A program made the position numbers and the translations under genes. From a virus (lineage: Duplodnaviria > Caudoviricetes), in IMG/VR virus record IMGVR_UViG_3300042997_001027, positions 1 to 42,197 of that record: 42,197 nt of DNA; one strand, given 5' to 3'. Below the pieces are notes generated by a model that saw only the letters and a list, made by a program, of their open reading frames with translations, searched no databases and was not told the origin of the DNA. Each line of letters starts with the position of its first letter. Positions within the stretch are counted from its first letter, which is position 1. Positions 32,087-38,632 of this stretch are shown in pieces.

Positions 32087-33813
32087 CGAGAGAATGGCTG
32101 TTCCCGATTACGGGAAAGGCCGGGATTTTGTTTTGGCAGGGTGTCAACAGAGGTTTCCATCTGCGACGCCGGCTCGGCGGCGGGAGTTCTCTGCGGAGGG
32201 GAGAGCTGTGGTTCGCTGTTCGTGAGCGCGTCGCCAGGCATTTGGTCCGCAGGCTGACCCATGATTTGGTCAATAGGAACAATCTGCGGCTGACCATCTG
32301 GACCTGGCATAACCACACCCAACGCTCCTTCAGGGATGGTGTTCGGAGCAGGCGCAGCACCACCCGCACCGCCCGCGCCGCCAGAAGGCGACTTGCGCCA
32401 AAGCTTGTCCTCGGGGACACCGGTTTCCTTCGACACTCTCTGAATGTAGGCAAAGTCTCTTGCCGACTTGCGGATGGTTTTCTCGAAACCATAGCCACGC
32501 GCCCCAAAGTCATCAGACGGCGGGATGCGTCCCATGTCCAGGTCAGCTCGTTCATTCGCACCTTCCCGGCCGGCATCCACAGTCACCGACTTGCAACACA
32601 CCCATTCTGTCTTCCACCAATTACGTGCATTAGGTATATTCTTGCGGTCAATCATAAGCCCGCACCAAAATTGGAAGTAGTCCTGGAGGAAACGATTGAT
32701 GAGCACCGTCTGGCGATGCGAGAAGAAGCGTCCTGCCTTCGCAACTACGAGGCGAACGGCACTTCCGCCTGCCCGAGTCGGGTCGGCCACGAACTCGTAA
32801 GGTAGGCCGCCCATAATGGAGTCGCGGCGCAAATGGTCGATGAAGCCGGCGAAAGCTGCTGAAGGACGTGCTGAAGCGTAAGAGACAAGGGACTCATTGT
32901 TTTGGAGAACAGCGGTCACACCACCAAGGATGCGGTTAAGTGAGTCTGGGTCGGTATTAGCGGTAGCGGAATTGCCCTCGCCCAAGGGCTGACCAAGGCC
33001 CAAGTCCCCAGAGTCCATCCGGGTGTCCTCGACCTTTAGGATGCGGCTTGTGCGGGAGTTGTCCTTAACTGCGACCTTCTCCATAGCCAGGAGGTCCATC
33101 TCGTCGCGCATGTGGTTGATAGCATGCTGATGAGGAGGGAACGCTCGGCTCTGCGAGGCGTATTCAACATCGTAGATGTGCATCATCGATGCCGCCTTAA
33201 TAGGTTCGTATTTGCCGTCCCCTTGCTTGACGTAGTAGAAGGTTGGTCTGCCCAGCTTGTCGAAACGGATGCCGTCAAAGATGTCCGGCAGGGACATGCC
33301 ATCTGGCGGTGTCTCCACTCGGTGAGCTTCAATGATTTGGAACTTAGGCTGCCCCTTCTTATCCTTGCACTTGATGACAAAGATTTCGCCGTCTCGGTCC
33401 AGGGCCTCACAGATAATGAACAAGCTCTCCACCATCGAGAAGCGGCCAGACACCTCCGGGCGGATGCACTCCTGCTCCCACTCGGCTTCCACCAAGTTTT
33501 GCCAATCGTAATCGCCACCCAAGCACTGAAGACCGATGCCCTCCCCAATAGAGTAGATGGCCGTGTCCTTAATCATCTGTTTGTATAGGCCGTTGTTCTT
33601 TTCTAGCCAGCGGGAAAGGCGAACCATCTCACGACGAGTAGCCCCCGTCATCTCCATCCGGAAGTCCGTCGGCTGCGGCGCGTCAATGCGCGTGCGGTGG
33701 ACGGAGTAGCGGGTAGACTCAAACGCCCCCTGATAAGCCTTTGGCTTCAGGAGGTTAGACAGAGACATGCGGACCCGGTCAACGAGTCCTGGCTTCTTCG
33801 GTTCGGGAGGCAT
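32083..33813 (-). CDS. portal protein, lambda family
   Basis: SRWLEKNN, DRDGEIF, QIIEAHRV, DGIRFDKLGRP..Y motifs. Confidence 0.9.
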   Translation of the reverse strand: MPPEPKKPGLVDRVRMSLSNLLKPKAYQGAFESTRYSVHRTRIDAPQPTDFRMEMTGATRREMVRLSRWLEKNNGLYKQMIKDTAIYSIGEGIGLQCLGGDYDWQNLVEAEWEQECIRPEVSGRFSMVESLFIICEALDRDGEIFVIKCKDKKGQPKFQIIEAHRVETPPDGMSLPDIFDGIRFDKLGRPTFYYVKQGDGKYEPIKAASMMHIYDVEYASQSRAFPPHQHAINHMRDEMDLLAMEKVAVKDNSRTSRILKVEDTRMDSGDLGLGQPLGEGNSATANTDPDSLNRILGGVTAVLQNNESLVSYASARPSAAFAGFIDHLRRDSIMGGLPYEFVADPTRAGGSAVRLVVAKAGRFFSHRQTVLINRFLQDYFQFWCGLMIDRKNIPNARNWWKTEWVCCKSVTVDAGREGANERADLDMGRIPPSDDFGARGYGFEKTIRKSARDFAYIQRVSKETGVPEDKLWRKSPSGGAGGAGGAAPAPNTIPEGALGVVMPGPDGQPQIVPIDQIMGQPADQMPGDALTNSEPQLSPPQRTPAAEPASQMETSVDTLPKQNPGLSRNREQPFSR

Positions 33814-34058
33814 CAGCGGTCAACCAAGCGGTTGTAATTCGTGTAGAGGCCCCTGACTCTGCCATCGAGCTTCTGGAGAGCGTAGTTAGCCTCCTGGAGC
33901 ATCTGTTGCGGTGGTAGGGCAAAGGACTTGCTGGCGTTCGTGGCCCCATCTCCGTAACTCATGATGGTCTTGCCCTCCAGTATAAGCTGGACGGCCTTGT
34001 CACGGATTGCCTCGACTGTTTCACGAGGAAGTCCGACAAATAGTCCGTTGGCTGGCAT
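33813..34058 (-). CDS. gpW-like head completion protein
   Basis: 81 aa between terL and portal, TGATG-coupled to the portal. Confidence 0.6.
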   Translation of the reverse strand: MPANGLFVGLPRETVEAIRDKAVQLILEGKTIMSYGDGATNASKSFALPPQQMLQEANYALQKLDGRVRGLYTNYNRLVDR

Positions 34059-34080
34059 CGTGCTTTTGGCACGCTGTCAA
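34059..34080 (-). promoter_or_regulatory. late-gene motif (type example)
   Basis: TTGACA-gcgt-GCCA-aaagcacg-ATG; related copies precede about ten late genes. Confidence 0.65.
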
Positions 34081-34111
34081 CGGGCTATCGGTAATTCGTT
34101 CACAAAGGGAA

Positions 34112-34215
34112 TGGTTCGCTGTATGACCCCTTTAACCCCATTGTAGGACGACCCGTGGGTCTTCCGCACATTGATGCCGCCTCTCTCGATGCGCGGTCTT
34201 TCATCAGCCGAACCA
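34112..34215 (-). ncRNA. structured RNA unit M
   Basis: TGGTTCG(G)CTGATGA pairs with TCAT(A)CAGCGAACCA; inner CCGCGCAT/ATGTGCGG and GACC/GGTC stems. Confidence 0.55.
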
Positions 34216-34223
34216 AAAGTAAA

Positions 34224-34446
34224 GGAGCTCCAGGACTTTTGTAGGCGGGAACCTTTCGGTCTATACCCCGACCACGCTGTCTGTCCTGGCATCTTGGCTT
34301 GCTTGTTTCCAAAGAGGTTGCCCTCCGGTGTGGAACCGACGCCCCGCATCTCCCCAGGTTTGGACCCCAGTAATTGCTTGAGCGACGTGTTAGTAGCAAG
34401 TCGCAGCACCACCCTGCTTTCGCAGGACCGCCGGTTTCCCGACGGC
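34224..34446 (-). ncRNA. structured RNA unit L
   Basis: Five GNRA-capped stems, CCAGGAC/GTCCTGG helix, possible pseudoknot. Confidence 0.6.
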
Positions 34447-34508
34447 AAAGTTTTAAAGAACGAAGATGTTGTCTTCTAGTGTTAGGTATTTGTCAACACT
34501 TTTTTTAG

Positions 34509-34623
34509 AGTCGCCGAGGAGGAGTTGAACCTCCGTCCCCGAGTCTTTTCAGGAGACCTGGGTCTTGCGAACCAAGCCACCGCCAATCAAGGCGGCTTCC
34601 AAGGACAGCACCACGCTACGGCT
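34509..34623 (-). ncRNA. T-arm-containing RNA unit K
   Basis: GGAGG-TTCAACT-CCTCC; GTCCTTG/CGGGGAC helix enclosing three hairpins. Confidence 0.6.
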
Positions 34624-34633
34624 GTAAAGGGGT

Positions 34634-34795
34634 TGGGGATGAAGGGATTTGAACCCTTACTGCTGTCGGTTGCACTCCGACTGCGTAGCCAAACGACCTT
34701 CTTGGGAGCAACCCCAAGGATTATCGTCTCTGCGTTGCCAGATTAGACAATTGCTTGTCCCACTTTGATTGGCTTCAAAATGACGCTACATCCCC
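34634..34795 (-). ncRNA. enlarged tRNA-like RNA unit J (162 nt)
   Basis: GGGGATG/CATCCCC acceptor, GCGT/ACGC D-stem, AAGGG-TTCAAAT-CCCTT T-arm. Confidence 0.75.
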
Positions 34796-34806
34796 GTAAA
34801 GTATTC

Positions 34807-35071
34807 GGCAACCGACAGCACTCCCTTGTCTCCCCCGCGGCTTATTGCGGTTTCTATCCAGGAGCTCCGTGTCAGAGTTGTGGACCTTTCGGCTACCCAC
34901 GCCTGTTGCCCGCCAACTTCCAGACGTCCCACGAAAAAGGTGGGCAATCCCTGGTGCAAGAATACTCCCTGTGTAGACAGGGCTTGTCTGGTTCGCTTGC
35001 GGCACTTTTCAGATGCCGACGGTTGATAGGCCGTCCCTCCTTGCGGAGCTGTGCGAGCAGTTTGCGTGGCG
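34807..35071 (-). ncRNA. large structured RNA unit I
   Basis: Two abutting domains closed by CGCCA/TGGCG and GGCAAC/GTTGCC, with many internal stems. Confidence 0.6.
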
Positions 35072-35097
35072 TTGAAATGTCAAGAGAACGGAAAAGT

Positions 35098-35231
35098 TGG
35101 TGGATACGGCGGGGGTCGAACCCGCAACTTTCACTTGGCTTTCCTTCGTGGGGACTGCCAATAGCCCACTCTTTTCGTGTCACGATAACACTACTTCCGA
35201 GTGGATAACTCGACCGATGAGTATCGTATCC
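35098..35231 (-). ncRNA. enlarged tRNA-like RNA unit H (134 nt, encoded CCA)
   Basis: GGATACG/CGTATCC+ACCA, ACTC/GAGT D-stem, GCGGG-TTCGACC-CCCGC T-arm. Confidence 0.75.
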
Positions 35232-35239
35232 ATAAGTTC

Positions 35240-35331
35240 ATCAAGTTTGCTTACGGGCCTGATAGTCTCTCCCCCTTTCGGGGGTTGTAGGCGCGCACAT
35301 GCGCCTCGTTGTTCGAGCTTTCGCTCTACAA
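35240..35331 (-). ncRNA. structured RNA unit G
   Basis: TTGTAG/CTACAA, GAGC-GAAA-GCTC, CCCCC-GAAA-GGGGG, ATCAGG/CTTGAT. Confidence 0.5.
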
Positions 35332-35338
35332 AATCAGA

Positions 35339-35412
35339 TGACCCAGGATGGACTCGAACCATCGACCTCACCCATTTTCAGGGTGCGCTCTAACCAACTG
35401 AGCTACCGGGTC
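35339..35412 (-). tRNA. tRNA with non-canonical anticodon loop (UGAAAAU; Phe-like or undetermined)
   Basis: Full cloverleaf GACCCGG-TA-GCTCAGTTGGTTAGAGC-G-CACCC-TGAAAAT-GGGTG-AGGTC-GATGGTTCGAGTCCATC-CTGGGTC-A; no encoded CCA. Confidence 0.85.
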
Positions 35413-35417
35413 GTAAG

Positions 35418-35478
35418 GACTCTTCTGACTAGCGACGCTCTTATCGCAGAGCGGGCGTTGGTCGGTGCCTGAAGAGTC
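35418..35478 (-). ncRNA. long hairpin unit E
   Basis: GACTCTTC/GAAGAGTC base and CGCTCT/AGAGCG apex. Confidence 0.5.
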
Positions 35479-35505
35479 TAACTTGAATGTCAAAAGAACT
35501 GAAAG

Positions 35506-35580
35506 TGGAGTCGGCGGGTCCGTTTTTACGGCCCTCCCACACACGGTGGGATTGCGCAGCTCGGTCATTCGAGCGCCGAC
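35506..35580 (-). ncRNA. 75-nt cloverleaf ending in TCCA (tRNA mimic, unit D)
   Basis: GTCGGCG/CGCCGAC 7-bp stem plus TCCA, three internal hairpins, no TTC loop. Confidence 0.65.
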
Positions 35581-35585
35581 AAAAG

Positions 35586-35662
35586 TGAAACCGGGTAGCA
35601 AATCCACGCCTCTTTCTGGACGCTTATGCGGATGCTTGCGGGGCTTCTCAACCCCTCCCGGC
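35586..35662 (-). ncRNA. structured RNA unit C
   Basis: GCCGGG/CCCGGT closing stem; GGGGTT-GAGA-AGCCCC. Confidence 0.5.
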
Positions 35663-35673
35663 ACTAAAGGTAT

Positions 35674-35746
35674 TGGCGGTCCATTCATCAAGAGGCATAC
35701 GGTGCGTGCTTTGAGGTGAAGGGGTTTGTTCCAACCCCACCCGCCA
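35674..35746 (-). ncRNA. structured RNA unit B
   Basis: TGGCGG/CCGCCA closing stem; GGGGTT-GGAACA-AACCCC. Confidence 0.5.
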
Positions 35747-35750
35747 GATG

Positions 35751-35863
35751 TGGAGAGTCGCCTTTAGTCTTTTCGCTCACGTCCAGGCAGTTGTTGCTGT
35801 TTGGCTGTGGTTCACTGCCCCGGCGTGTGGCCGAGGACTTACGGTAGATTTATCGGGCGACTC
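35751..35863 (-). ncRNA. structured RNA unit A ending in TCCA
   Basis: GAGTCGCC/GGCGACTC 8-bp stem plus TCCA; inner GTCC/GGAC, TCGGC/GCCGG and GGCAGT/ACTGCC. Confidence 0.6.
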
Positions 35864-35960
35864 AAAGAACAGCAGGGTAGTTAACCCTGACTCGAACATA
35901 CAATCAGATGCCCAAGCGTTTGACAAGATAAATCTGCAAATAAACGAAAATAGTTTTTAC
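35862..35960 (-). promoter_or_regulatory. putative promoter and boxB/boxA-like leader of the RNA operon
   Basis: AT-rich tract, TTGTCA, TGTATGTT, hairpin CAGGGT/ACCCTG, then TGTTCTTTGA. Confidence 0.55.
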
Positions 35961-36014: not shown

Positions 36015-37856
36015 CTATGAGGCAGGAGGGGCCTCGGAAGGCTGCTCCACAGGCTTTTCCTCTGGGGGAGGGGGCGGTGGAGGAGCCAGGAAGCCAAACG
36101 CCAACGCCGGCACGAACTGCATTACCTCGCAGTCCCACAAGTGATTAGCTCGCTTACCAATTCGCTTCCACTCTGGCTTGCCTGCCAGGTTCTTCGTGCG
36201 CACCTCCGACTCCATCTGGTCAATGTAGTCCTGGCCGCTGTCCGCAGATGTCGTGTGCTTACCAACCTTACGCATACGAGAGAGCTGGTCCTTCAACGCC
36301 AAGTTGGAGAAGTGATGGACTCGAACAGGCCCTGTCCCAACATTCACCATACGCGCGGGAGCGTAGACTTTGCCAACCGGCTTACGACCCTTTGGTGTCT
36401 CCACCATCCAAGTAAACTCGTAGCGAGCATCCCCTCGTAGGGCCGTCCACTTATTGATACCACACTGACGGATGACGTCGTCGAACTGGTCACCACAGTC
36501 AACATATGTCAAAGCTGGATGAACCTCGTAAGTCTTCCCCATCGAGATTACGTCTTCCCAAGTCTGCACATACCTCCACTTTATTAGGCGGCTATCCCCG
36601 CCCTCTGCCCATCCACGGACAAGGCAAAAGAAGCCCTCGCGCTGCACGTCCACGGACATGAACCGAGCTCGTATCTGCTTCTCCCGCTTGTGGTCGGTGT
36701 GTATCTTGCGCGAACCAGGGTCGATGCGGGCTTCCTTGTCCCACTCTTCACCCATCTTGTAGTCCCCAATCGTTTGTAGGCTTCCGAAATCATCAGGGGC
36801 ATCCGACCAAAAGTGCGCCAACTGCTTCTGTTTGAAAATCTGCATCGCTTTTGCGTCCCCATTGACGTCTAGCATAAGCTTCGCCCGGACATACATCTCT
36901 GCCATAGAGCCCCAGGAACGGGCCGCCAAGCCACTCCAAGTGTAGCCGTGGTTCGCAGGGTCGGCCGAGGGGGATGTAATGGCGTAGAAGCCCGTAGCGT
37001 TGAAGTCATCACGGTTGGAGCGGGTATCCGCAAACTGCTTCTTGCACCCCTCGCACTCATACTTGGTTTCTCGCTTGATGAGGCCGTAGTCAAAGTCCCC
37101 GTCTCGTTGCATGGCGTCGGGTATCTTGACTTGGTCCCAATTCCAAGGCTGCCTATGACCGCAGGAAGGACAGGCGAACGACCACACCCTCTGGTCCGTA
37201 GTCTTCCAAACGCCCTCCGTATCGTCGCCCACAAAGCTACCCTGCGACATGAAGATGCGCTTACCCAACCAACCGAATGAGGTCACACGCGCGGAAGCTT
37301 CCGCAAGATGCCCCGCCGGCCAGAGCCAGGTCTCATCACCCACCAACCATCGAATAGACCGCCGTTGTAGGTTCTTCTCATTGAACGCCCCCAAACACCA
37401 AAAGGTCATGTCCTCCGTCTGCACCGTCCCCGACTTCTTCCCTGTTTCGTCCTTCTGAAGCTTGGCGATAACCGGTGGCACGTTCTCCCAAAGCACCCGC
37501 AAGCGGGACTGCATCCAGTCCGCAGCGTTAGAGTCCTGGTCGTTCAGGTAGAGCGTAGGCGCCGGCTGCCGCGCAATAATAAAGCACGACAGCATCTCCG
37601 CCATCAAGCTCTTGCCCGACTGAATGGGCGCGATGGTCACGACAAGCCTGACCTCCGGGTCCGCACACGCTCGGAGCGGCTCCGCCAACCAAGGCGTCTC
37701 CTGCACCCGAAACCCCGAAGGCATCGGCGAGAAAGGTATCTGCCTGATGTTCTCCTCCAACCAAGTAACGATGTCCCCACCCTCATCCGGGCGGAACACC
37801 CTCCTGATGCGGGACTCCAACTGGTCGGCTATAGCCTCCTTTTGAGCAGGGGTCAT
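36015..37856 (-). CDS. terL: terminase large subunit, GpA family
   Basis: APIQSGKS Walker A, LVGDE Walker B, CPSC/CEGC, SVDVQ and NHLWDCE nuclease motifs. Confidence 0.93.
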   Translation of the reverse strand: MTPAQKEAIADQLESRIRRVFRPDEGGDIVTWLEENIRQIPFSPMPSGFRVQETPWLAEPLRACADPEVRLVVTIAPIQSGKSLMAEMLSCFIIARQPAPTLYLNDQDSNAADWMQSRLRVLWENVPPVIAKLQKDETGKKSGTVQTEDMTFWCLGAFNEKNLQRRSIRWLVGDETWLWPAGHLAEASARVTSFGWLGKRIFMSQGSFVGDDTEGVWKTTDQRVWSFACPSCGHRQPWNWDQVKIPDAMQRDGDFDYGLIKRETKYECEGCKKQFADTRSNRDDFNATGFYAITSPSADPANHGYTWSGLAARSWGSMAEMYVRAKLMLDVNGDAKAMQIFKQKQLAHFWSDAPDDFGSLQTIGDYKMGEEWDKEARIDPGSRKIHTDHKREKQIRARFMSVDVQREGFFCLVRGWAEGGDSRLIKWRYVQTWEDVISMGKTYEVHPALTYVDCGDQFDDVIRQCGINKWTALRGDARYEFTWMVETPKGRKPVGKVYAPARMVNVGTGPVRVHHFSNLALKDQLSRMRKVGKHTTSADSGQDYIDQMESEVRTKNLAGKPEWKRIGKRANHLWDCEVMQFVPALAFGFLAPPPPPPPEEKPVEQPSEAPPAS

Positions 37857-38632
37857 TTCTCGTCCTCCATCTCCCCAAGGGTATCGTCCGTAAAGTCCTC
37901 AAGCGAACCACCCTCCTGCGGTGTGTCCTCATCTTCTAGGTCTTTCACCACCCCAAAGAACGCCGCGTTAGCAGGCGCCGCCGGCTTAATCCCAATCTCA
38001 TCCTCCCCAATCCCAGGCGAACGGTCACGCACATCTGGACTGTATTCCGAAATCTTCCGAAAAAGGTCATCCCGAAAATCTCTAAACGCCTTCAAAGCTT
38101 TTGGGGGGTTATCAGGATTTGCCTTGGGGGCCACCGTTAACTCCGCCCGCTCTATTAGGTTTCTTAACTGACCCATCACCTTCGCAAAACGCATAGCCGC
38201 CACCTCCGCATCAATCAACTTACCCTCCTCCTGGATACGGATAAACCGCTCCTTCTCCAAACGCAATAGGGTAGCCACCGCCCGGTCATAGTTCGCATAC
38301 AGCTTCCCCTGCGCAGGGTCACCCGACTGCAACGCCTGCATAAAAACCTGTCTCGTCAATGAGCACAACTCCGTCTGCTCGCTCACGCGCGTATCCATCT
38401 CCGAGTTTCCTGTCTCCCCCGTAACCGACTTCAGGATACTATCCAAGTCCCCAAGGTTCAACGGCTGCACCGGCTGACTGATGTGCCCCTTGCTCTGCAT
38501 CTCAATCTTCCGACGGTCACGCCACGCCCGAGCCTCCTCTATCGAGTCTCCAGGCATACCCTCCTTAACGAGCTGTGATACTCGCCCCTTCGTCAGCCCA
38601 AGGGCCGCTGCTATTTCGCTTTGTGATGCCAT
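37853..38632 (-). CDS. terS: terminase small subunit (Nu1-like)
   Basis: N-terminal HTH SQSEIAAALGLTKGRVSQLVKEGMP; ATGA overlap with terL. Confidence 0.8.
   Translation of the reverse strand: MASQSEIAAALGLTKGRVSQLVKEGMPGDSIEEARAWRDRRKIEMQSKGHISQPVQPLNLGDLDSILKSVTGETGNSEMDTRVSEQTELCSLTRQVFMQALQSGDPAQGKLYANYDRAVATLLRLEKERFIRIQEEGKLIDAEVAAMRFAKVMGQLRNLIERAELTVAPKANPDNPPKALKAFRDFRDDLFRKISEYSPDVRDRSPGIGEDEIGIKPAAPANAAFFGVVKDLEDEDTPQEGGSLEDFTDDTLGEMEDEK

Follow-up and report, generated by a model that had tools for sequence, protein, structure and literature searches.

The closest precedent for the RNAs described here is a pair of small phage RNAs with tRNA-type ends, RNA C and RNA D of T4 (species 1 and 2), which one account lists as 'RNAs of yet unknown functions' (PMC9697503). 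GOLLD and ROOL are described as ornate phage-associated RNAs found near tRNAs (PMC5737381, PMC12286853), and the allo-tRNAs (Mukai 2017, as reviewed in PMC7609411) as polycistronic, irregular tRNA-like RNAs, some of which are not used in translation. The T4 genes rnaC and rnaD are 139 and 119 nucleotides (nt) long; rnaC has a T-arm before its 3' end and rnaD ends in CCA. A further group, the Y RNAs and YrlA associated with Ro60 (TROVE), are tRNA-mimicking non-coding RNAs of bacteria and phages. Here we describe a tandem array of structured RNAs in a 42,197-nt phage fragment (IMG/VR record IMGVR_UViG_3300042997_001027, CheckV completeness 48%), which we call the window and whose positions are used throughout. 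The array lies on the minus strand in a lambda-type head module (terS, terL, gap, small open reading frame (ORF), portal, head protease, major capsid protein), in the gap between the large terminase gene terL and the small ORF at the place of gpW. We conclude that the array is real and strongly selected, that T4 RNA C and D are a precedent for its kind, and that many of its RNA classes are absent from Rfam.

The gap is 1,960 nt long, and an initial annotation, which had placed a run of structured RNAs here, was right about its position: the terL gene ends at 36015 and the gpW-like ORF begins at 34058, with the units between them at 35861 to 34113. Relatives were gathered by terL and portal, giving 20 and 29 loci in IMG/VR and 19 loci in metagenomes; we cite these loci by L numbers. 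The gap is non-coding, as had been claimed: not one of the eight ORFs that overlap it is conserved, each being intact in at most one of ten relatives, against ten of ten for the gpW-like ORF (an ORF counted as kept when at least 80% was covered without a stop codon). It divides instead into 14 self-closing modules, or about 13 RNAs (Table 1). The claim of consecutive self-closing units thus stands, except that unit I consists of two modules, I1 and I2, which are found separately in relatives. That the units lie outside known families also holds up. At gathering score Rfam recognises only tRNA F in the window, and nothing further is credible at E<=5; searches by gathering score and E-value over the window, 14 clade loci, 20 loci with unit G and 8 array loci returned only tRNA and transfer-messenger RNA (tmRNA) T-arm fragments. 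ARAGORN adds a tRNA-Ser call, which is the 3' part of unit K.

Folding energy is only modestly beyond chance. Blind 120-nt tiles have a mean z of -0.95 on the minus strand and -1.34 on the plus strand, against about -0.2 outside the gap, and 2 of 18 tiles fall below -2; units folded at chosen borders give z from -1.1 to -5.0, a figure biased by the choice of borders. The case for structured RNAs therefore rests on covariation. Each unit was aligned with its homologues after removal of near-duplicates (>=98%), an RNAalifold consensus was taken, and pairs changed on both sides were counted; as a null, column substitutions were re-dealt over the tree and the result refolded. The counts are given in Table 1, to be read against null means of 0.8-3.8. 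The null reached the observed count in 0 of 60 trials for A, D, H, I1, K and L, in 1 of 60 for I2, and in 0 of 40 for J and for F' (22 two-sided pairs, n = 11), the family that fills the place of unit F in relatives. Ten control windows in the portal gene gave 0-6 two-sided pairs, and the null is lenient since two of the ten beat it. Judged by these controls, covariation in A, D, H, I1, J, L and F' is far above the coding background, I2 and K lie just above it, and B, C, E and M are suggestive. Compensatory change in the relatives' terL-gpW intervals, on which the initial annotation had staked its reading, was thus found beyond the null for most units. For unit H a further check of the alignment fold upheld the two-sided pairs listed, and the loops of its two payload hairpins are complementary over five invariant bases, which makes a kissing loop between them possible.

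Conserved single-stranded motifs are present in A, I, L and M. A hammerhead reading of CUGAUGA in unit M was rejected, the motif being paired with compensatory change. A palindromic kissing-loop idea was likewise rejected, with 29 self-complementary hexamers at hairpin apices observed and 52.5 expected. Palindromic hexamers as such are depleted 2- to 18-fold relative to shuffles in the arrays of the window, L003-L005, L009, L011, L013, L015 and L019, as expected from restriction-site avoidance.

Units are gained, lost and reordered between relatives, so that the array is modular. The slot is kept, with gaps of 1.2-5.4 kb that differ in content and partly hold protein cargo, and array versions reach about 3 kb (L360). 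Hidden Markov models (HMMs) of the window units match 3 to 14 of 19 clade loci (12 for unit A), and unit order is altered in L011, L015 and L360. When 18 arrays were crudely split, the 211 pieces fell into 90 clusters, 32 of them common to more than one phage, so that our figure of about 30 RNA classes is a rough one. By pattern scan, A, F', I, L and D turned up in this clade only, the matches of I, L and D outside it being due to chance. Unit M is the most persistent: an M-like fold is present in 16 of 19 intervals, down to relatives at 56-59% portal identity, and is absent or degenerate in L003, L014 and L020, the last of which lacks the whole array. In the distant L042, L044 and L046 there is a minimal version, a promoter-like site with an M-like RNA, to which L042 and L044 add boxA, one more RNA and a terminator-like hairpin. 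No close cultured relative was found (terL identity to cultured phages is below 26%), a search for the host through prophages in GTDB gave two matches at 25% identity, neither informative, and when the array was compared by blastn with 50,697 annotated phage records, tRNA F alone gave matches.

Some relatives hold elements that the window lacks. One unit, at L002:8974-9148 and in seven other arrays (cluster 6), has CCUCC followed by a run of A and an internal motif common to the F' payload; we take the CCUCC stretch to be anti-Shine-Dalgarno-like. In L012 (3458-3985), L013 (2604-3107) and L018 (8178-8618) a conserved gene for a protein of about 146 amino acids (aa), with no Pfam match, stands inside the RNA array and is followed by a hairpin and a promoter-boxA restart. 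This protein is a candidate partner.

The initial annotation had called many of the units tRNA-like, counting four with a T-arm, three ending in a stem plus NCCA, and one tRNA of normal size. The four T-arms are there (F, H, J and K), all on the minus strand of the gap, whose plus strand has none; the remaining 40,237 nt hold none on the minus strand and three on the plus strand. The NCCA end holds for H (6 of 6 relatives) and mostly for D, and fails for A, which ends otherwise in L004 and L005. Unit F is a tRNA by Rfam, with its best E. coli match to tRNA-Ile (about 90% over 58 nt), but its anticodon loop has G33 in place of U33 and the anticodon AAA. As for 'many', four to five of the 14 modules are tRNA-like and nine have unrelated multi-way folds without tRNA features, so that tRNA mimicry cannot explain those nine.

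The four T-arm units are tRNA scaffolds without a working anticodon; none combines a 7-nt anticodon loop with U33, since F has G33 and the arms of H, J and K are replaced. In the place of F, relatives carry the F' family, 150-220 nt long, in which an acceptor stem, a short D-arm and a T-arm surround a large insert. Unit H is an F'-type design with an ACCA end, and members of the J family have an inflated D-loop and an often mismatched acceptor stem. In L360 the payload of H is found in a scaffold with a degenerate T-loop. The parts conserved in these scaffolds are those read by RNase P, RNase Z and the CCA-adding enzyme, and the anticodon side is the variable part; presumably such tRNA-with-payload units are natural counterparts of engineered tRNA scaffolds. 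The array is not a tRNA supply, because ordinary tRNA clusters lie elsewhere in the related genomes (13 tRNAs in G003, 11 in G002, at least 3 in G001) and F lacks U33; three related arrays (L017, L019, L360) do have ordinary tRNAs at their 3' end. Nor is there a common charging identity, as the scaffolds listed have neither a G3-U70 pair nor a shared discriminator.

Unit G begins directly after the discriminator of F. It consists of a closing helix, an optional bulged-G hairpin, a sequence-conserved hairpin, a variable hairpin and a loop-to-tail pseudoknot, and its junction bases are invariant. The G core pattern matched at least 121 loci, with about 350 stretches estimated in IMG/VR, some of the matches being chance matches in genes. 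Among the matches listed there are 111 distinct G, 56 of them with a T-arm just upstream, and 46 of these 56 start with GC exactly after the discriminator; the RNAs upstream are, among the same matches, mostly tRNA bodies with 35-150-nt inserts that ARAGORN missed. In unrelated phages (L071-L189, e.g. L087, L121, L134, L165) tRNA bodies with anticodon-loop inserts precede G. Of 31 sequences, left from 49 rows after 6 with a poor closing helix and 12 duplicates were dropped, 27 form the second pseudoknot pair, with four Watson-Crick pair types among them; in shuffles the share is 43%, and 0 of 5000 reach the observed level. The contrast is inflated by relatedness and drawn on sequences whose core is itself the search pattern. 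A covariance model of G recovers held-out copies and finds G in the window and in seven clade arrays, with no match in T4 or CcrColossus. With blastn, two G variants gave only short core matches among the 50,697 phage records, none followed to a full G, and one such match (H115) falls within an annotated gene. There are standalone copies of G too, and other scaffolds contain its core hairpin. Because it starts at the discriminator, has no Rfam match and occurs in standalone and embedded copies, G would be either a processing ribozyme, theta-like but with a new fold, or a payload freed by RNase Z.

The signals around the units appear to form an rRNA-operon-like layout. Four boxA-like motifs lie in the gap and none elsewhere in the window, and over 14 arrays there are 38 in 31,132 nt against 3 in 149,153 nt of flanks; the copy in L042 and L044 is near the E. 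coli consensus. In B. subtilis rrn operons a leader hairpin is followed by boxA (PMC13753749), and in the array a boxA-like motif likewise comes just after a promoter-like site or the leader hairpin. The promoter-like sites P1 and P2 keep their -35 box and spacing in relatives, the spacer sequence being variable. P2 with its boxA is a second conserved site of this kind, between K and L, so that there are likely at least two precursors, not the single one initially proposed. Terminator-like hairpins follow the array in L009, L015 and L044. The further proposal of separately folded RNAs laid out for processing fares well, as there are putative tRNA-shaped cut sites and the pyrimidine spacers named in it are in their places. 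Linkers are U-rich; YCA precedes CUUU in 48 of 212 array contexts and 11 of 481 flank contexts (about tenfold), and a G start after a linker closes a stem beside another linker in 24 of 51 cases, against 85 of 680 random G starts.

Twenty-four sequencing runs share words with the gap, 22 of them registered as RNA; 20 runs with a word share below 0.2 were left out, except X5. The five runs examined, all lake RNA libraries, contain contigs of close strains over head genes, and four of them contigs over parts of the array. A 272-nt contig spans 34807-35078, the borders of I1 plus I2, with no loose end, which is a weak hint of a separate RNA, and contigs from two other studies are confined inside unit I. 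One contig extends from L across M and the gpW-like gene to the portal (33720-34426); a contig of this kind shows no single transcript. Uncovered parts of the array (e.g. 35092-35178) and contig depths were not counted as evidence.

What might such an array do? Our best reading, which we favour tentatively and with slightly less than even confidence, is that it encodes some 13 fold-selected RNAs that are transcribed by the host from two promoters with boxA, processed by the host, and act as exchangeable decoys. Host RNA polymerase would transcribe the array from both promoters with boxA/Nus-factor antitermination; RNase P would cut the 5' ends of tRNA-shaped units, and RNase Z- or RNase E-type enzymes would cut at the discriminator and the U-rich linkers. 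D and H would bear CCA ends, and about 13 separate stable RNAs would be released by host tRNA-processing enzymes. The tRNA-shaped units would retain only the parts seen by those enzymes and by 'top-half' readers (acceptor stem, D/T elbow), and would have two uses: as punctuation they would free their neighbours, G among them, and as stable carriers they would hold swappable payloads. The released RNAs would bind host RNA-surveillance or anti-phage proteins. We regard the operon-and-processing half as quite probable; granted that half, the decoy half is about a coin toss. A decoy against RNA-targeting defence is our best guess, prompted by the pattern of gain and loss and by the neighbourhood. 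Anticodon nucleases, proposed earlier among possible targets, fit poorly because anticodon arms are the replaced parts; proteins reading the acceptor end or elbow are possible targets. An RNA ligase, RtcB, is encoded elsewhere in G003 (C1:2696-3787), one of five clade genomes searched, and in the same slot of the distant L044 (3360-4580), with similar ORFs in L041 and L042. Its presence may point to pressure from RNA-cutting defences, as indirect support. Pfam was also run on 148 of the 176 ORFs in parts of three relatives, and no other RNA-processing partner emerged. A bolder version, which we consider doubtful, is that of an RNA-only counter-defence arsenal, with an rRNA-style operon, tRNA scaffolds with swappable payloads, and G as a new, widespread class of self-cleaving ribozyme or protein-binding RNA, capping or releasing the scaffolds at tRNA position 74.

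Several observations weigh against the decoy operon. RtcB was not found in four of the five clade genomes searched (three of them incomplete), and no target protein, ligand or defence system came to light. The nine modules without tRNA features fall outside the scaffold argument. A consensus promoter scan scored no sites, P1 and P2 both lying below threshold. The RNA evidence consists of assembled contigs without strand or ends, possibly from DNA and lying also over terL and other genes, and contig breaks fall at strain branch points, the same places as the module borders. The null is lenient, and B, C, E and M (4-7 pairs) do not stand clear of the coding controls. Moreover, the retention of M across distant relatives looks more like a core function than arms-race cargo.

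This last point leads to a rather unlikely alternative in which the same operon and processing would yield RNAs that reprogramme housekeeping machinery instead of acting on defences. They would work on ribosomes, elongation factors, RNA polymerase or RNA chaperones, as sponges or adaptors, in favour of phage gene expression. The conserved single-stranded motifs of A, I, L and M resemble protein-binding sites, as would suit such a role, and the cluster 6 unit of eight relatives adds its presumed anti-Shine-Dalgarno stretch. However, Rfam shows no 6S, signal recognition particle (SRP) or CsrB-type RNA in these loci and tmRNA only as T-arm fragments, there is no conserved tag ORF, and an antisense search against phage genes found tRNA similarity only; fast turnover of units is also less expected for housekeeping targets. 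A role in the virion for one or more units, above all M, is very unlikely in our view. Such units would be part of the packaging motor, like packaging RNA (pRNA), or packaged and injected cargo. The fixed place between terL and portal is in keeping with this, as are the contig that joins L and M to the gpW-like gene and portal, and slot proteins whose shared leader we take to resemble that of processed internal head proteins; T4 RNA C and D, too, are described as late RNAs (PMC9697503). Yet L003 and L038 have no M and L020 has no array at all, the phage has its own terS, that contig shows no single transcript, and terminator-like hairpins stand after three of the arrays (L009, L015 and L044).

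That G is a new class of self-cleaving ribozyme, which would play the part of theta ribozymes with another fold, cut itself at the discriminator from the tRNA-shaped RNA upstream and make the array partly self-processing, is compatible with the decoy operon, if unlikely. Theta ribozymes are described at the same place (PMC10879173), and the exact start after the discriminator, the invariant junction bases and the covarying loop-tail pseudoknot speak for it. Its strand order is not HDV-like (hepatitis delta virus), however, P1 closing the whole domain; G stands alone or lends its core hairpin to other scaffolds, F' scaffolds occur without G (L009, L015, L360), and position +1 in the window is U, not G. 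A non-C at +1 suits RNase Z release equally well. Finally, we give next to no weight to the idea that the array is a tRNA cluster in decay, or neutral junk that recombination has shuffled; covariation has already largely refuted it. The dead anticodon loop of F, the mismatched acceptor stems of several J-family members and the modest blind z-scores would fit decay, but compensatory change is heavy inside the inserted domains, nine modules bear no relation to tRNA, intact tRNA clusters lie elsewhere, and conservation extends to promoters, boxA motifs and linkers.

Turning to the neighbourhood, the small ORF had been named gpW; a conserved small ORF is indeed at that place, and since PHROG and Pfam scans gave no match the name rests on position only. 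The slot also takes unrelated protein cargo, including proteins alike only in a short N-terminal leader. Dozens of these proteins, of 180-480 aa and in tandem runs (Table 1), have a common leader of 10-15 residues ending in Ser-Glu or Ser-Asp; almost all are without a Pfam match, one having pentapeptide repeats. We take them to be akin to internal (ejected) head proteins, which a protease processes and whose leader targets them to the capsid. In the window, TTGACA lies 20-40 nt ahead of many structural-gene start codons on the minus strand (34080, 31088, 28598, 27530, 27244, 25759, 24048 and 16607), which would leave too little room for a normal leader if it were a -35 box; it is possibly a late-promoter or translation signal.

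Table 1. Features of the array, its flanks and leader-protein runs in relatives. Pairs are two-sided covarying pairs, n as used for each count; positions are in the window unless a locus is named.
Feature	Position	Strand	Remarks
terS	37853-38632	-	own small terminase gene of the phage
terL, terminase large subunit	36015..37856	-	PHROG 15, E 9.5e-53; upstream flank
Promoter-like site P1 (predicted)	35898..35926	-	-35-like TTGTCA at 35926, weak -10; position and -35 box kept in relatives
Leader hairpin, then directly boxA-like motif 1 (35870)	35860..35889	-	layout as in B. subtilis rrn leaders
Unit A, multi-way junction RNA	35755..35861	-	14 pairs, n=10; no Rfam family
Unit B, three-way junction	35674..35746	-	4 pairs, n=6, 92% canonical; within coding-control range
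Unit C, three-way junction	35590..35662	-	4 pairs, n=4, 99% canonical; within control range
Unit D, CCA-ended cloverleaf without T-loop consensus	35506..35580	-	7 pairs, n=5; wider family 12, n=13
boxA-like motif 2	35488..35499	-	motif scan
Unit E, long bulged hairpin	35418..35478	-	6 pairs, n=4, after realignment; 0 in first alignment
Unit F, normal-sized tRNA, tRNA-Ile body	35339..35412	-	no U33, anticodon AAA; Rfam 57.7 bits
Unit G, pseudoknotted four-way junction	35248/35250..35338	-	starts directly after tRNA discriminator; no Rfam match
Unit H, tRNA scaffold (acceptor, D-arm, T-arm, ACCA)	35098..35231	-	~75-nt two-hairpin domain replacing anticodon arm; 9/28 pairs two-sided, n=6
boxA-like motif 3	35078..35089	-	motif scan
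Unit I, largest RNA, ~270 nt (I1 35072-34910, I2 34910-34806)	34806..35072	-	24 (I1) and 7 (I2) pairs, n=10 each
Unit J, tRNA scaffold, inflated D-loop, replaced anticodon arm	34632..34795	-	J family 21 pairs, n=12
Unit K, T-arm-bearing multi-branch RNA	34510..34622	-	7 pairs, n=7
Internal promoter-like site P2 (TTGACA at 34496) and boxA-like motif 4 (34461), predicted	34450..34496	-	
Unit L, two small leading hairpins and multi-domain RNA	34224..34446	-	19 pairs, n=13; HMM match 14/19 loci
Unit M, three-way junction on long bulged stem	34113..34214	-	5 pairs, n=6; wider set 7, n=11; most widely kept unit of slot
Small conserved ORF (81 aa), gpW by position only	33813..34058	-	kept in 10/10 relatives
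Leader-protein runs	L008:6354-7460, L014:2623-5619, L017:8298-9683, L044:4643-5503		shared N-terminal leader
Leader-protein runs, further	L048:227-3325, L231:109-12792, L225:10635-15792, L224:17542-19490		shared N-terminal leader

How does the array compare with known systems? Its identity as a tRNA cluster, GOLLD/ROOL, Y RNA or HDV-like ribozyme was considered and set aside, and tmRNA was rejected as well, the scaffolds having no G3-U70, no conserved tag ORF, and only relaxed-threshold ARAGORN calls and Rfam T-arm fragments. GOLLD and ROOL are each a single large RNA (500-800 nt), whereas the array consists of self-closing units of 60-270 nt that move independently and have no Rfam match. Allo-tRNAs have 8/4 or 9/3 acceptor domains at tRNA size, in contrast to F, H and J, which have 7/5 with 50-150-nt replacement domains, and here the scaffolds sit among many non-tRNA units. 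In the case of the Y RNAs and YrlA, a TROVE-linked array exists in phage CcrColossus, where L234:780-1960 holds an unannotated array of repeated scaffolded RNAs and tRNA fragments just upstream of a TROVE-like gene; in this clade none of five records (three incomplete) has a TROVE gene, and acceptor stems are open-ended rather than permuted. An HDV-like fold is a nested double pseudoknot in which the 3' strand of P1 comes right after P3. G differs from it in strand order, in having one loop-tail pseudoknot and no Rfam HDV-type match, and in also standing alone, although it shares with theta ribozymes, as described in PMC10879173, the position at the tRNA 3' end (46 of the 56 listed). Antitermination by boxA in rRNA operons and CRISPR arrays likewise involves a leader hairpin and boxA ahead of a long untranslated transcript (PMC13753749); here boxA-like motifs occur in a phage, up to five times per array, with novel RNAs. 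We found no description of this array or of G in the literature, including the part of the PMC10690425 supplements that was searched, where five motifs had no match in 6 files; the supplements cover 10,006 candidate viral RNAs from IMG/VR, and files 1, 2 and 4, which lay outside that search, may hold some of the units unnamed.

The likeness to T4 RNA C and D is the closest. H, J, K and the F' and N families, like them, join a tRNA-type acceptor, T-arm or CCA end to an enlarged body; none of the array matches T4 in sequence. In T4 there are two such RNAs, placed within an ordinary tRNA cluster, whereas a genome here has about 13 and the clade about 30 classes, mostly not tRNA-shaped, in a separate operon with its own promoter-like sites and repeated boxA. 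To our knowledge, T4 RNA C and D have been without a function for about fifty years. Covariation-backed structures, together with natural variation in presence and absence, make the function of phage stable RNAs testable unit by unit, and G, small, widespread and sharply defined, is a ribozyme candidate. If the units are decoys, anti-defence would be an RNA repertoire as much as a protein one. The array presents the design of T4 RNA C and D enlarged about ten times, and with comparative depth.

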